A stretch of 64,000 bases of DNA from Gemmatimonadales bacterium. Its GTDB lineage: Bacteria > Gemmatimonadota > Gemmatimonadetes > Gemmatimonadales > GWC2-71-9. The position numbers and the translations under genes were made by a program. Positions 45,399 through 56,130 of the stretch are shown in pieces. Every line of letters begins with the position of its first letter. Position 1 is the stretch's first letter. The stretch lies in NCBI GenBank assembly GCA_037189525.1, contig JBBCJC010000005.1, positions 1,056,001 through 1,120,000 on the forward strand. The letters are read 5' to 3'. The notes under the pieces were generated by a model. The model did no database searches and was not told where the DNA came from. It saw nothing but the letters and a program-made list of their open reading frames with translations.

Positions 45399-46130
45399 TT
45401 ACTTGGGCTTCTTCCCGGGTCGGCTGTCCCGCAGTGGCGCCGATGGCTGGAACGCCACCTCATCCGTCTCCGTCGTCGTCTCGCGGCGTGACGCCGTCAT
45501 GGTCTCGGAGTCGGCAGTTTTATCGCCGCGCTTAGCGGCCTTGCCGGACTTGCCGCGCGCCGCTGAGCGGGACGACCCGGCGCTCGAGTCAGCCTCCTCG
45601 TCCTCGTCCATTTCTTCGTCGTCATCCTCATCCTGATCGGCGACCGACTCGGCTTCCTGATTGATCGTCGCCGCCAGCGCGGTCAATGCTTCATCGGTGG
45701 CCGCTTCCTCGTCGAGCGTCTGCTGCAACACCGCGGCGTGATCCTCATATCCGAGGTGTTGGGCCCAGGTGCGCGCAGTCCCATACCCGGCAATTTCGTA
45801 GTGTTCGACCCGCTGCGCCGCCGCGATGAGCCCTGCATCGAGAACGTCACCTTCGAAGTCTTCGCCGAGCAGTTCCTTGCCCTCGGAGATGAGACCCTCC
45901 ATACCGACACACTTTTTCCCGCGCGGCGAGACATCCAGCGCCTCGCAGATATCTTCGAGCCGTTTGACGTGCTCCCCCGTCTGGCGCTCGTGCGCGGTAA
46001 ACGCCTTCCGAAGCTTCGGCGCAGTTGCGGCCTTGGCCATCCGGGGGAGCATCGTCAACAGTTGCTTTTCCGCGCTCCAGAGATCTCGCAGTTCGTCCAC
46101 AAAGAGGTCATGGAATGATTCGCGTGGCAT
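45399..46130 (-). CDS. YciE/YciF (DUF892) ferritin-like stress protein with acidic/basic disordered tail
   Basis: ELRDLWSAEKQ, H..RLE, C.GMEGLI.EG, AAAQRVEHYEIAGYG, TLDEE. GGAG RBS. Confidence 0.92.
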   Translation of the reverse strand: MPRESFHDLFVDELRDLWSAEKQLLTMLPRMAKAATAPKLRKAFTAHERQTGEHVKRLEDICEALDVSPRGKKCVGMEGLISEGKELLGEDFEGDVLDAGLIAAAQRVEHYEIAGYGTARTWAQHLGYEDHAAVLQQTLDEEAATDEALTALAATINQEAESVADQDEDDDEEMDEDEEADSSAGSSRSAARGKSGKAAKRGDKTADSETMTASRRETTTETDEVAFQPSAPLRDSRPGKKPK

Positions 46131-46234
46131 ACACGGTACTCCACCTTTCCAGGCTACGGTGAATGATTGCGTACGATGTCTATACCAGCTGGCCGCGGCA
46201 GGCGGGCATGCGACGCCACCCGCCTGCCCGCGAC

Positions 46235-46582
46235 TCACCGTGGATCGTGCGGCGTCAGGATATCCTCGAGCCGGTCGTCACGCGACAGCAGGTCATCCTC
46301 CGGGAAATCCGTTGCATTCTTCGTCGTTCGGTCCTTCGGATCGGATGACTCATCACGCCGTCCCGGGTTGGTGGGCCGATTCGGATCGTTGGGGCGATTC
46401 GGATCGTTCGGCCGGCTCGGATCGTTGGGTCGATTCGGATCGTTGGGACGGCTCGGGTCGTTGGGCCGGCTCGGGTCGTTGGGACGGTTCGGATCGTTCG
46501 GCCGGTTCGGGTCGTTGGGCCGATTCGGATCAGTCGTACGGTTCGAGGACGGGGTCCGTTCACGTGCTGTTTCGTTTGCCAT
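46235..46582 (-). CDS. Small hydrophilic protein with nine P(N/S)RPND repeats
   Basis: GGAGG RBS 5 nt before ATG; co-oriented upstream of the yciF-like gene; repeats vary mainly at synonymous positions. Confidence 0.75.
   Translation of the reverse strand: MANETARERTPSSNRTTDPNRPNDPNRPNDPNRPNDPSRPNDPSRPNDPNRPNDPSRPNDPNRPNDPNRPTNPGRRDESSDPKDRTTKNATDFPEDDLLSRDDRLEDILTPHDPR
46367..46528 (-). repeat. Tandem 18-bp repeat x9 (coding)
   Basis: Plus-strand units about CGTT(G/C)GGnCGrTTCGG(A/G)T; no spacers. Confidence 0.92.
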
Positions 46583-46860
46583 GGGCGCCTCCGATCGCAG
46601 GTATCGAGCTCTCTCCGCAGCGCAGTCGCGGTGCAGTACTTGGGAGACGCCACCAATACACTACGAGAGTACACTTGCTTGGTACGCATACGCCGTGACC
46701 GGAAACCGGAGTTGGGTATGTCTAAGAATTGCGCACAATTTGATAGAAGCTTTGACACCTGCGGTGCGTGGTGTCGCAATTGCGGCGCAACTCCGTCATA
46801 GCTTGTGAGCCCCCGCGACACAGGGCCGCTTTCCACTGATCCGCTTGAACCGGAGGTCCC

Positions 46861-47061
46861 ATGCACGACATGACTCCTGAAACGGCTGCCCGGCCGAGCC
46901 TCCGCATCCGGCTCAGGATCATTGCAAGCGTCGCGGCGAGCGTGGCCGTGCTCGCCCTTGCGGTGCGGTGGTATGAGGGACGCCGGCGACGAATCGACCG
47001 GCCCCGATTGCGCAACGAGCCTGAGCCCGAGCCGAGGCCACCCTCGACCCCGGAAGATTGA
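46861..47061 (+). CDS. Small single-pass membrane protein (66 aa)
   Basis: GGAGG RBS; one hydrophobic helix IIASVAASVAVLALAV followed by an Arg-rich stretch. Confidence 0.6.
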   Translation: MHDMTPETAARPSLRIRLRIIASVAASVAVLALAVRWYEGRRRRIDRPRLRNEPEPEPRPPSTPED

Positions 47062-47076
47062 CCGCCTGCGAGAGGC

Positions 47077-47598
47077 CTATCCTACAGGTTCAGGTCTCTC
47101 CCCTGAGATCATCTCAGCACCGGGTTCGATCAATGCCTCCATCATCGTCTCCAGAGTTTCGAGCACCGAGGCTTCCTCGTTCCAGATATCCTCCAAAAGC
47201 GCAACCTGGTCCGAATAGCCCAGGGCGAGGGCGTGGCTCCGGGCGGTTGCGTACCTGGTGACCTTGTAATGAGCGATCTGATGGACCACGGCCACCAGAG
47301 CCGCATCCATGACGTGGTCACGATAATCATCGGCGAGGACCGCATTGGCACGAGCGATGAGACCGTCCATCCCGGCACAACGCCTGACCCGGACCGGTTC
47401 CCCCAATTCTTCGCCGATCCGCTCGAGCCGCCGAACGTGGTGATCGAGTTGGCGGGAGTGGTCGATCAGGACCTGCCGGAGCAACGGAGCAGTCGCCTTT
47501 CGCGCCATCCGGGACAACGGCACCACCAAACGTTTCTCGGCGCTCCAAAGGTGCAGCAAATCATCGACGTACATGATCCGAAGCAGTTCGCGGGGCAT
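47077..47598 (-). CDS. Divergent YciE/YciF (DUF892) paralog
   Basis: Aligns by eye with the 45399-46130 product (LWSAEK, RRLERI, CAGMDGLI, LGY.D) but lacks several Glu ligands. Confidence 0.85.
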   Translation of the reverse strand: MPRELLRIMYVDDLLHLWSAEKRLVVPLSRMARKATAPLLRQVLIDHSRQLDHHVRRLERIGEELGEPVRVRRCAGMDGLIARANAVLADDYRDHVMDAALVAVVHQIAHYKVTRYATARSHALALGYSDQVALLEDIWNEEASVLETLETMMEALIEPGAEMISGERPEPVG

Positions 47599-50467: not shown

Positions 50468-50502
50468 GACGACCCGGCCGAGTACTTCTCGACCGGGTCG
50501 TC
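50468..50502 (-). terminator. 15-bp stem-loop between convergent genes
   Basis: GACGACCCGGCCGAG-tactt-CTCGACCGGGTCGTC. The one mismatch is G-U on the minus strand; no clear U-tail. Confidence 0.5.
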
Positions 50503-50532
50503 AGTCCGCTGCCATCGATGATCCGGCGCGAC

Positions 50533-51228
50533 TCATGCCGCCCGATCCTCGGTGCCGGTAACCGGCGGCGTGATACCGGTGTCCCGCGTCTTGCTGCGGA
50601 ACGGACCCAGCACGTTACGCGCACCTACCCAGGCGCCTAACGGCTCCGCATCGCCGGCAAAGCGGGTCCGGTTGATCACGTCCATCAATCCGACCAGTTC
50701 CATGATCTCCGCAGTGACCTCGAACAGCTTGGCTCGGGCGCCCATGTGCTCTCGTCGGCCGGCGTTGGCGCGTTCGGTGGCGGCCTCGAACCGGTTGAGG
50801 GCGTCGGTCACCAGGTCGAGGTGATCGGCGGAGAGGCCGTGCCTTCTCAGCAACTCCTGGTGCTCCCGGGCGGCGGTAACGAGATCCCAGCCCCGGGCCA
50901 GAAACGCTGCATGGGACATGCGTCGTCCCGGCATCCGGAACCGGCCCGCGATATCCGGATTCTCGCGGGCAGCCAGGTCGGCCACCTTGCGAAGGTACCG
51001 GATCATCGCGACCTCGATATCCTGGCGCACCTGTCGGCGACGCCGGGTGGCTGTGGCCGAGCCCAAACGGCCGGATTGTTCCTGCACGGCGAGCGACTGC
51101 GCCCGGGTGACCAGGTCACCGAAGCGGGCGCCGATGGCCAGGTGGCTCGGGTCCGTGAAGGGGTGGGCAGTGAGAAAGTCACGAACCCGAACGGCCATCT
51201 CCAGTTTCCTGCGCGCGCTGCTCAACAT
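50533..51228 (-). CDS. Uncharacterised helical, Arg-rich protein (231 aa)
   Basis: AAGGAG RBS before ATG 51228 (MLSSARRKLEMAVRVRDFL...). The upstream extension in the ORF track (to 51879) is low-complexity array sequence. Confidence 0.8.
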   Translation of the reverse strand: MLSSARRKLEMAVRVRDFLTAHPFTDPSHLAIGARFGDLVTRAQSLAVQEQSGRLGSATATRRRRQVRQDIEVAMIRYLRKVADLAARENPDIAGRFRMPGRRMSHAAFLARGWDLVTAAREHQELLRRHGLSADHLDLVTDALNRFEAATERANAGRREHMGARAKLFEVTAEIMELVGLMDVINRTRFAGDAEPLGAWVGARNVLGPFRSKTRDTGITPPVTGTEDRAA

Positions 51229-51553
51229 ACGACGACTCCTTTCGGGAACCACATCGCCGCGGACTCCCGGGGTCCGCGTCGCGTGCGCCGCCGACGAGGG
51301 GCGACCGGGTTCCCGGGACACCGGGCCGCCGGATGCGGACGAAGCGAAGATTGGACCAGGGCCGAATGGAGTCGTGTCGCCGGATCGGTTGGGTTGCCCG
51401 CTCCGAACGCGGATCTCGTTGTGAGACACGGAGTAAGGCGCCGAAGCACGAATGGAATACGGTAGCTCCGGCGGATCGGATTGCGCGGCGAGAGACCGTC
51501 GGGCGTGTCCACTTTCATGGACATGAGTGTCCAGGGGAGGAGTCAACGCTTCT

Positions 51554-51974
51554 GGAGCAGTCACCGGAAATGAAGGACCTCGGGCCGGATGATTCGGAGA
51601 TGCGGGTGAATCTGCAGGAGCGAGCATCGGATCGGGCTGACTTGTCGTCGACAGTGGGGGACTTGTCGCCGGATGATATGGACCGGCTGCCGACAGATGC
51701 GGATTGGCGAGTGAGCGGGATGGACTTGTCACCGAGCGATGGGGATAAGGAGCCTGAAGATGGGGGACTGGGGATCGGTTGATGTGTATCGGCGGTCGGA
51801 TCGAGCGGAGTAGTGATCGGTCGGGTTGGAGCGGGGGTCCGCAGTGGTGGACCAGAGACCGGCAGTGATGGCGACGCACACTGCGGTGGTGGATCAGAGG
51901 CAGAAGTGGTCGGAGACGGAGCCGGATCGGGAGGACTGGTCGGTTGGCAGAGTGGAGCCGCCGACCACCGGAAT
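51554..51974. repeat. Degenerate 21-bp-period tandem array, about 20 units
   Basis: GGA at positions 1-3 in 17 of 20 units, G at position 7 in all 20, and mostly YCG/YCN at 11-13. One 22-nt unit (extra G in the G-run at about 51764). Confidence 0.85.
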
Positions 51975-52001
51975 GGCCAGCAGTTCCTCCTCTCGACTCG
52001 G

Positions 52002-52236
52002 CTACCGTGACCAGCGGAACCCGGCGTAGAACGAGCGTCCGTCCGACGGTTCGTAGAACTGACCGACGGCGTTGTCGATCTGCACCGACGCGGAGTATCG
52101 CTCATTGGTCAAATTCTCGACCGCAGCAAACAACGTCAGCCCTCGACTGGCCAGCAGGTACTCGGCTCGGACGCCGAACACGGTCCATCCGCTATTCTCG
52201 AGAGTATTTTCGCTGTCCACAAAGTAGCGTCCGGGG
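52002..52236 (-). pseudogene. C-terminal fragment of a TonB-dependent receptor
   Basis: GRYFVDSENT...WTVFGVRAEY...LTLFAAVENLTNERY...YEPSDGRSFYAGFRWSR* are typical terminal barrel strands. Upstream sequence is unrelated. Confidence 0.8.
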
Positions 52237-52309
52237 TCAATCGAGCACGACATGCTTGATCCGAGTGCAGTAGATCTCAGGCTGCCAGCAAGGGAGTTGA
52301 CGTGTCTGT

Positions 52310-53846: not shown

Positions 53847-54035
53847 CAGAGAAGCGCCGCACCCATTACTGATCCGGTGGGCGCGCAACGACGGTCAATC
53901 GTCGCCGGCAGCCGGAAAGGGGGTAGCCACCGGCAGTTCCCGCCAGAGTCGTTAGGCAGACGCCGGAGAACAAAAGGCGAACACCTTGCCACCGCAATAC
54001 GTCGGTTCTCAGCTTGGAGCTACGGACTCACGACG

Positions 54036-55014
54036 ATGTATCGATTGAGGTTCCCGTTTCGTCCCGTCGATGAGACGGCACAGTTTTCCGAGTCGATCAA
54101 CCTCCGGTCGGCTGGCTTCACCGCGTCACTTCAGCCACATCTTCCGTACGTTGTGCTTAACCTCGATGGCTTTGAGTCAGTAGAGAGCGCCAGTGATGCG
54201 TTCCCGTTGGCCTGGGGAACCATTATGGTCGCCTCCGTACTCGCCAACTGCGGCTTCGGGATCGAAGCATCGTTAGATCGGTTATACATACCTTCACAAC
54301 CGCTCGACCCTGAGACCATTACAGCATCCATTGGGCTGCGCGTCTCTGACGCCTGTTCACGGTATCGCGAACGGTAACGTTCCCATTGTGGTACCGGCCA
54401 CCGGAAAAGTGATCTACGCTACCACCGGCGATGTAACACTGAAGCGATCGTCACCCATCGCTCGCCTGGTACCGTTCATCGAGCAAGCACTCTCGATTCC
54501 TGGCACCGCGCATGCCTACATTAACGACCGCCTCAGACTCGCGTTCGATCTTTGGGCAGATTATCACAGAGAACAGCGCCTTCGGGCGAAGTTTCTGACT
54601 CTCGTAATGGCACTTGAAGCTTTGGCCGAAACGATTCCCAAACATCCTGCTGCTGTCGCGCTACTTGACCGATGGGCCAAGGAAGCAACAACCGAGCTCA
54701 GCAATTGGGCACCCGACACAGAGGAGTACGAGGCGATCGAATCTGTTAGGCGAGAACTTCTGGTACGGCGACATCGCTCAATCAGGAGCCGGATCCAATC
54801 CCATATCACCGGAGTTATCGATGCCGTTCAGCCGGGAGAAGGCACCCGCATCGCCAAACTCGCACGAACTGCGTACGACCATCGGAGCACACTACTGCAC
54901 ACTGGAGCGATTTCGTCGGCTGCCTTGAGCGAGGGTCATACAGTCGCGTTGACTGCGCTACGCGCAACCCTCCTTGCTTCCCTTGGGGTTTCGCCGCTGA
55001 CCATCGCTTGCTGA
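54036..55014 (+). pseudogene. Frameshifted HEPN-motif (ApeA/MauJ-like) protein
   Basis: ATG 54036 frame stops at 54377. The +1 frame from about 54331 continues with KFLTLVMALE and AYDHRSTLLHTG (R-x4-H). Lower GC. Confidence 0.65.
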
Positions 55015-55077: not shown

Positions 55078-56130
55078 GTGGGCCTCACTGATTTTACGAT
55101 CGAAGCAATGGGATTTCGCCGCATGCCCCCAGAGAAGGCGGTTTCCGCTGCGTTTCATAGCCTAACTACCTTCGAAATTCGGGGCCTGAAACTGGATGAA
55201 CGAGAATCAGTCGAGAGTGCGGCCAGCACTGTCAGCGATGTTCCCTACCGTATTGCATTGGGACCCTCTCCGAATCGGCTCGCACGACATCTTATAGATG
55301 ACGACCTAGTAGATGACGAGTCGCGATGGCTGGCAGAATCCAAGAGCACCCCGCCGTTTCTCATGCTTCACATCGGACTCCCGGAAATCCATGAGGTGCG
55401 AGGAGCCTACGTCCGAGACGAGCCAAATCGGATATTGACATACGGGGCATTCGAGTATGCGAAGGCGAAGCTGAAGAGGGCTGAAGGTATCGTCGTTCCT
55501 AACATTGCCTCCGCATTCACATGCGAGTTCAGCCACTTTAGCCCAACAGTCAGTCTCAAGCAGGTAAGCCGAGATGTCTACGGCATAACACCAGATGGGC
55601 GGACCTTACACGACATTCGGATCGAGGTCCGAGGTTCACTATCGACTGCACAACGCATCAGCCCAAACACCACACAAGCTTACCTTAGTCGTTCGACAGA
55701 TCTAGCCGCCTCACTCAAGTCGGCAGTATCTCAATTCCTTCACCTTGCGTTCGACGAAAAAGATCAACTCAAACGGTTCTTGTACCTTTTCTTTGCCCTC
55801 GAGCGAATCACACATACCACATTTGCGTCGATCGACCTTGATCGCCATATGTCACGACTATCCGAGGTTTCTAGACGGACTTCAAAACCTCGAGATCAAC
55901 CGAGGGAGTGGAAGACGCTCCAAGATCGGTTTGCCTGGTGTTCAGTCGTCGTCTGGACACAGCTTACCGACAACGACATAGCAACCTTTCGAATGCTCAA
56001 GAAGGTCAGAGACCGACTGGCCCACGGCGAGATTACGGCACCGCCAAGTCCATCTGTGCAGGTAATCGAAGATCTCGTGAAGAAGCTCCTCCGCCAAGCC
56101 GATCCCGTCACCACACACCTACAGACGTGA
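55078..56130 (+). CDS. Hypothetical protein with C-terminal HEPN R-x4-H motif (ApeA/MauJ-like)
   Basis: AGGAG RBS; RFLYLFFALE and KKVRDRLAHG; lower GC than flanks. Confidence 0.7.
   Translation: MGLTDFTIEAMGFRRMPPEKAVSAAFHSLTTFEIRGLKLDERESVESAASTVSDVPYRIALGPSPNRLARHLIDDDLVDDESRWLAESKSTPPFLMLHIGLPEIHEVRGAYVRDEPNRILTYGAFEYAKAKLKRAEGIVVPNIASAFTCEFSHFSPTVSLKQVSRDVYGITPDGRTLHDIRIEVRGSLSTAQRISPNTTQAYLSRSTDLAASLKSAVSQFLHLAFDEKDQLKRFLYLFFALERITHTTFASIDLDRHMSRLSEVSRRTSKPRDQPREWKTLQDRFAWCSVVVWTQLTDNDIATFRMLKKVRDRLAHGEITAPPSPSVQVIEDLVKKLLRQADPVTTHLQT

Follow-up and report, generated by a model that had tools for sequence, protein, structure and literature searches.

Repeat arrays bound by the product of an adjacent gene are exemplified by sopC-SopB of F, parC-ParR of R1, and the iterons. 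Sigma-54 enhancer regions combine sites of the NtrC/NorR type with IHF, and TIGR-type arrays are guide arrays. Another kind of array has been described in Bacillus by Subirana and Messeguer (PMC8161180): tandem repeats of a constant 20-21 (and 40-42) nt, variable in sequence and non-coding, for which a polymerising protein was proposed. Autogenous repression nucleated at a pseudoknot is described for gene 32 of phage T4 (PMC535899). A literature search, with most subscription journals outside its coverage, found no paper on a gene link, a promoter or a leader of constant-size arrays.

The locus described here lies in a 64,000-nt stretch of Gemmatimonadales DNA, the window. Its array shares with the Bacillus repeats, as the available text of PMC8161180 presents them, a fixed 20-21 nt period, free sequence, a short motif particular to each array and non-coding character. 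Judged without SATFIND, at least 60% of units fall within ±1 nt, which by sequence places the array among the constant-size 20-21-nt repeats. That text links the repeats to no gene family, promoter or RNA leader, whereas here each array is tied to one protein family; the arrays here are also far more divergent, and TRF misses ours. The Bacillus repeats were reported without a function and, in the same text, without a partner. This locus offers a candidate partner protein together with a promoter and a new covarying RNA structure, all within one 1.5-kb unit (Table 1). Comparison of genomes suggests that array, leader RNA and helical-protein gene travel together as one unit in soil and water bacteria, and that the unit may be an undescribed self-regulating protein-DNA system.

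Table 1. Features of the locus, in positions of the window
Feature	Position	Strand	Basis or remark
Strong hairpin past the stop codon, lacking a U-tail; may act as a terminator or stabilise the 3' end	50470..50500	-	fold z -4.5 (50470-50535)
Gene for a 231-aa basic (pI 11.2) all-helical bundle protein	50533..51228	-	unnamed multi-copy Gemmatimonadota family, distant PQLLE kin
Ribosome-binding site (RBS)	51236..51243	-	sequence
Leader hairpin B, 7-nt loop (51265-51271), kissing partner of A, 14 nt before the RBS	51258..51278	-	predicted structure
Leader hairpin A; loop 51312-51318 complementary to the loop of hairpin B	51300..51330	-	predicted structure
Sigma-54-type -24/-12 box (GG-N10-GC), weak variant; predicted start near 51332	51344..51358	-	family position -132
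Short conserved motif between palindrome and promoter	51412..51423	-	same place in 5/7 leaders examined; weak
18-bp palindrome (TGTCC-N8-GGACA type), candidate sigma-54 activator site, 30 bp off the array end	51506..51523		sequence; function inferred
Degenerate 21-bp array, 20 units, extra base at 51764, non-coding	51554..51974		period, columns, 106 family arrays

The array is the top period-21 signal of the window, with a lag-21 identity of 0.464 (z 8.3) and a lag-42 identity of 0.471, neither of which was reached in any of 500 base shuffles. A half-unit period of 10-11 bp is absent (lag 10, 0.30; lag 11, 0.25), and none of the 43 TRF rows in the window reports the array. The initial annotation had parsed this DNA into consecutive 21-mers with one additional G, and had called certain columns fixed and the plus strand G-rich. 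The parse holds over 20 units to 51974, the columns are G1, G2 and A3 (19/20 each), G7 (18/20), Y11 (15/20), C12 (16/20) and G13 (15/20), and 43% of the plus strand is G. It was equally right in setting the array apart from CRISPR, as variation is spread through each unit, the motif differs from locus to locus and no Cas or Nop domain occurs in 141 family members, and from a recent VNTR, as the units are only 46% alike and go unseen by TRF. Some other arrays of the family are more regular than this one.

The same annotation had joined array and gene into a module, and had proposed that at homologs an upstream 21-bp period should recur with divergent units and no conserved frame. Such recurrence was found. 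Among homologs with at least 900 bp upstream (the first set), the period occurs upstream in 65/84 but downstream in 1/81 and in 5/300 random windows; no other period tested exceeds 3/84. In a second set the array is present in 41/46. A 21-bp array lies upstream of 112/137 homologs of the host family, to which the gene belongs, and of 23/24 members of the sister family, a separate clade of the tree; the homologs sampled are part of the listed matches, strong ones with room upstream being favoured, kin among them are not independent, and the counts include one locus (L029/L135) from the unpublished genome G057, without bearing on any claim. All three paralogs in this genome have the array. At the threshold used, 25 of the 137 host-family homologs (~18%) have none. 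The other period-21/42 matches in this genome are two coding repeats and one orphan 21-bp array (G000:C5:573440-573900), which has no family gene and contains 1-nt register shifts. The orphan stands between a tRNA-like sequence and an amidohydrolase-like gene, with no palindrome nearby.

That no continuous heptad protein is encoded had been concluded from stops on both strands. Those stops are present, yet on the minus strand two frames cross the entire array without one, that of ORF 51515-52105 and that of ORF 50533-51879, which runs on into the 231-aa gene; one plus frame has a single stop. The array is therefore called non-coding because of comparative evidence, drawn from the 106 family arrays with the clearest signal, and not because of stops at this locus. 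Units in these arrays are 21 nt long in 2029 cases, 20 nt in 97 and 22 nt in 72, with very few others; a smaller tally has 1473, 89 and 60, a spread that would fit helical tolerance rather than codons; the unit-length model penalises and under-detects 3-nt indels, and the register shifts stand. At least two codon registers, each of at least 63 nt, occur in 44/106 arrays. The period-3 share of array conservation is 0.079±0.007, vs 0.49 in the coding control, a genuine 7-aa repeat within a TPR-like protein (G000:C3:450440-451000), and only 14/106 arrays can be read through in the frame of the gene. For host-family arrays, open-frame counts are close to a column-aware first-order null (43 vs 45.3; 42 vs 37.3). 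An excess of open frames over column shuffles and over reversed or complemented controls was discarded, these nulls being unfair; under the column-aware null it disappears, except for the sister-family antisense count (17/22 vs 11.0±1.7). A nearest-unit substitution test could not separate even the coding control.

A hypervariable or decaying heptad ORF, which would here be a Pro/Ser-rich N-terminal extension or an antisense peptide, could draw on the two open minus frames, one of them entering the gene, on the coding heptad array elsewhere in the genome and on the sister-family antisense count. Against it stand the mixed registers, the lack of codon-phased conservation or of any kept frame, the host-family open frames at the null, and antisense translations that share no common sequence. 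The heptad reading, offered in its decayed form by the initial annotation, is thus disfavoured and largely refuted; we consider it very improbable. Comparison across the family shows the array to be non-coding DNA with a fixed step of two helical turns and a free, quickly replaced motif.

Array motifs are specific to the locus. Their similarity is at background (~0.29) below 55% protein identity, some pairs at 79-80% protein identity already have unrelated motifs (0.28-0.31), and close homologs can be aligned from the promoter on but not over the array. Units exchange their motif and hold to the period. At one locus (L205, G261:C18) two different 21-bp arrays stand in tandem, an apparent snapshot of motif replacement with an older and a newer array. 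Motifs that change so fast speak against strict sequence recognition and leave room for three other readings: a host factor, a mutational footprint and a coated RNA.

The footprint would arise if the protein or the promoter complex promoted 21-bp duplications and deletions in nearby DNA, arrays then being reborn with new motifs. The alignments that leave the array out and the tandem locus agree with this, as does a relative in run X2 that keeps the gene and both flanks and has 886 other letters across the array region. However, array length is fairly constant (host-family median 20 units, sister-family median 28), which suggests selection and speaks against a footprint. Between strains there is no hypermutability, as low-depth pieces obtained in other studies match the array at ~95-98% of bases. 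Run X1, which may have supplied this DNA, holds a 29.8-kb contig that agrees with it at each of 3401 bases, the extra G among them; a depth-3 piece of X3, from another study, has 14 substitutions in 274 bases and lacks one base at 51751, a loss that might be erroneous but would bring the units back into register. We regard the footprint as rather improbable.

Between array and gene lie a sigma-54-type promoter, a palindrome and a pseudoknot leader, all absent from the initial annotation. The box at this locus scores only 4.0, while those of the closest homologs score 4.6-11.0. It falls mostly 120-138 nt before the ATG (76/89 host-family leaders vs 7/516 control windows). Scores exceed 9 in 105/137 host-family loci, and the palindrome is found in 91/137; both matrices were trained on the first set and, applied to the new set, identified 41/46 (box) and 29/46 (palindrome). 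The best palindrome site of this locus and of its three closest homologs lies at -291 to -297. Across host-family loci, the TGTC-N10-GACA spacing occurs 40 times upstream vs once downstream, at either end of the array and not inside it. The short motif at 51412-51423 we take to be loosely IHF-like; only nine such sites lie within 80 bp of the box in ~80 loci. The genome encodes RpoN and has 19 Sigma54_activat matches, 15 of them at E<1e-20. With a box at a fixed place, RpoN, activators and an upstream palindrome, these leaders are by their sequences sigma-54 promoters, with a weak box at this locus. In the host family neither strand yielded a second conserved sigma-54 box.

Sigma-54 boxes and palindromes are both missing from the sister family (0/24 each), which retains the array. 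A promoter-like motif occurs there at the far end of the array in 12/22 loci and never between array and gene. In six sister-family loci (L190, L195, L199, L204, L210 and L215) a conserved GC-rich, hairpin-like segment is situated between this motif and the array start. Since the array is kept without sigma-54 elements, it follows the protein family and not an enhancer; comparison of the two families shows it to be inherited with the helical-protein gene whatever the promoter type. Furthermore, host-family arrays precede the promoter whereas sister-family arrays are apparently part of the transcript, so that DNA is the level common to both.

These observations bear on the possibility that a host factor, such as an oligomer of a sigma-54 activator, IHF/HU or another nucleoid protein, wraps or bends the array, the helical protein being only the regulated output. 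The frequency of box and palindrome in the host family, the position of palindromes at array ends and the presence of RpoN with activators would suit such a factor, and short palindrome-to-box distances are in helical phase (n=24, p ~0.01 at 10.5). Long distances are not (n=29, p 0.45), and the sister family keeps its arrays with neither element. Among the 13 palindromes listed genome-wide at a score above 13, only the three beside family genes have an array. An AT-dinucleotide phase-lock to the palindrome at 10.5 bp appeared in the first set (p 0.0002-0.01, one of 120 tests), was not replicated in the new set (n=13, p 0.11-0.31) and was rejected; none of the 10.5-bp features common to the loci was replicated. 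A host factor as the principal occupant of the array is unlikely in our estimate, though less so than a footprint.

At this locus the loops of hairpins A and B are predicted to form a perfect 7-bp kiss. The pseudoknot-free minimum fold pairs loop A next to the RBS instead (z -0.77), a lead to a possible alternative state. Among host-family leaders of the long class, the loop of the 5'-end hairpin is complementary to that of the pre-RBS hairpin in 50/92, vs 57/460 shuffles and 23/92 reverse complements; the first stem is present in 35 of the 50 kissing leaders vs 28% of controls, and 42 different kissing sequences occur. In fixed windows, picked after the data had been seen, 58/92 leaders are self-complementary over at least six bases vs 15% of cross-pairs, the maximum of 10000 permutations being 28. 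An unconstrained pseudoknot score had little power, and MAFFT aligned the leaders poorly.

In sister-family leaders the pseudoknot is compact and of the H-type (12/24 vs 2/96 shuffles), a topology that differs from the kissing hairpins of the host family. In 19 of 26 sister-family leaders, chosen by eye, 9/16 pairs have changed on both sides, as in 0/500 shuffles. This RNA motif alone, scanned against 185,579 genomes, gave 40 matches, 20 with gene and array and 20 with neither. The 20 positive matches, four of which were already in the sample, comprise all 19 Gemmatimonadota-titled records and one Myxococcales record; the gene lies 15-23 nt downstream and a 21-bp array upstream. A first stem that was not part of the query is present in 18 of them and in none of the other 20. 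One locus (L241), on a 2.4-kb contig titled Myxococcales, holds a sister-family pseudoknot, array and gene start, by transfer or by mis-binning. An Rfam search of 15 loci (E<=1) gave no match in a leader and only two chance miRNA matches outside leaders, and the leader is thus a new candidate cis-RNA without an Rfam counterpart. Comparison of leaders thus points to a covarying pseudoknot next to the RBS of these genes, which at this locus is predicted to take the form of kissing hairpins.

The RNA itself could be the scaffold: an unstructured repeat transcript would be coated by the protein in 21-nt steps from the pseudoknot, yielding an RNP or a guide-like particle. Sister-family arrays, which lie downstream of the promoter-like motif, abut the pseudoknot (ending 72-109 nt before the ATG in 12/22), and the gene strand is C-rich in 62/84 host-family arrays. 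In the host family, however, the promoter lies between array and gene with no second box to transcribe the array, and array folding z-scores average only -0.79 and -0.45 (30 of 65 arrays tested). A step of 21 corresponds to turns of B-DNA rather than of A-RNA. We hold the coated transcript to be about as improbable as the footprint. The structured repetitive ncRNA that the initial annotation had suggested is likewise disfavoured, the arrays folding no better than shuffles and lying upstream of the promoter in the host family. A Rho read-through insulator was also rejected, as the C-rich skew is independent of the orientation of the upstream gene (0.105 vs 0.100).

The gene starts 325 nt from the array and has the RBS and downstream hairpin described in the initial annotation, although the hairpin is absent from the terminator scan list. 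Its product has conserved arginines at 64, 68, 158 and 189 and an invariant tryptophan; the median pI of the family is 9.7. AlphaFold2 predicts a confident long helical bundle (pLDDT 94). Neither this protein nor any of 141 family members matches a Pfam family, sequence search found no relative of solved structure, and Foldseek gave no match at E<=0.001. The best hit of a PDB fold search, the McpS sensor (Z 10.8, rmsd 3.4, 180 aligned), falls below the tool's mark of ~13 for bundles. No known DNA-binding fold (HTH, RHH or ParB) was recognised in the protein. Relatives number 1327 at E<=0.001 among 50%-identity representatives, and the nearest Atlas clusters are Gemmatimonadota hypotheticals; no match was found in phage and plasmid collections, nor any longer fused homolog, the latter being weak evidence. 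A single-protein search found the family in 46/201 genomes of the phylum, with up to 14 copies, and a profile search in 81/301 genomes of the order; copies tend to cluster by host lineage. A distant relationship to NCBIfam PQLLE (NF052641), of similar length, is weakly indicated by near-full-length matches in 19/141 members (best E 5e-9); the 80-bit cut-off is not reached by this protein (12.1 bits) or by the best match in 201 genomes (37 bits). Pfam DUF6261 (PF19775), also similar in length and an Atlas lead at 0.87-0.88, had no match in 201 genomes at its 27-bit cut-off; distant kinship may still hold, as the profile matched no control genome either.

The neighbours had been called defence-like; PADLOC gave no match for any of six proteins. 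No conserved partner gene was found, the largest neighbour cluster covering 9/178 loci. Seven of the 178 loci adjoin a gene that we take to be integron-integrase-like (L053, L059, L061, L078, L096, L126 and L138) and nine adjoin one presumed to be Uma2-like, so the module appears to sit in insertion-prone regions. In the window, an apparent remnant of a TonB-dependent receptor, a C-terminal fragment (52005-52292, minus strand), lies 30 bp from the far end of the array. Two overlapping plus-strand ORFs (53877-55014), apparently one gene broken by a frameshift, adjoin an ORF of 350 aa (55078-56130) that weakly matches MauJ; these ORFs, presumably HEPN-like, match nothing in PADLOC or NCBIfam. 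On the minus strand at 45399-47598, two DUF892 ferritin-like genes flank a small ORF (46235-46582) with an 18-bp, six-residue repeat.

The reading that we favour, tentatively and at somewhat less than even probability, is one of self-limitation: the basic helical protein would load cooperatively, in two-turn steps on the array and also on the leader, and so restrain its own expression. Loading on the array had been among the proposals of the initial annotation. With one unit to every 21 bp, assembly of the protein would depend on spacing and on a brief local motif more than on any fixed sequence. At sigma-54 loci the bound protein might crowd the enhancer and so damp transcription of its gene; at loci with the array behind the promoter, it would block RNA polymerase. 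Surplus protein would then bind the leader pseudoknot and turn off its own translation, as T4 gp32 does. Candidate purposes downstream are local chromosome organisation, anchoring and selfish self-maintenance. Cooperative loading is favoured by the position of arrays upstream of the genes in both sets and in the sister family, independently of promoter type, by the conserved arginines and long helical model of a basic protein whose gene stands alone, and by an RNA motif that retrieves gene and array in half of its matches. Motifs at background are hard to square with sequence-specific cognate binding, and the host-family homologs without an array, the orphan array, the lack of a known DNA-binding fold or a replicated 10.5-bp feature, and the two pseudoknot topologies also weigh against it.

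A broader reading, which we find doubtful though well within the possible, is that these are widespread one-gene systems in which a helical-bundle protein polymerises with a 21-bp ruler, makes or selects its own array and meters itself through an mRNA pseudoknot. The protein would be the missing reader of the constant-size 20-21-nt repeats, and the up to 14 paralogs in a genome might form orthogonal protein-array pairs. If true, a protein that reads period rather than sequence would represent a new mode of DNA recognition.

Among the other known systems, TIGR-type guide arrays are set apart by alternating repeats, which are absent here, and by a Nop-domain partner, found in none of 141 members. 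A sigma-54 enhancer is closer: host-family loci have the -24/-12 box, a Fis-type palindrome and a possible IHF site. Unlike an enhancer, however, the 400-bp array is not made of palindrome copies, which stand at its ends at unphased long distances, and it persists without sigma-54 elements. With centromere and operator arrays the locus shares phased direct repeats beside a gene and, by analogy, plausible cooperative loading and autorepression. It differs from partition and iteron systems in that the units are not conserved, the protein has no HTH, RHH or ParB fold, no plasmid match was found, and the neighbouring genes include no ParA/ParM/TubZ ATPase or Rep partner and give no Pfam match to one. 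The leader resembles the T4 gene 32 operator, as the available text of PMC535899 presents it, in having a pseudoknot just 5' of the RBS of a gene with a putative cooperative nucleic-acid-binding product; it differs in that the protein is unrelated, its binding is inferred and the topology at this locus is that of kissing hairpins. By analogy, the mechanism would resemble a centromere or operator array combined with the T4 gp32 operator, and would belong to neither.
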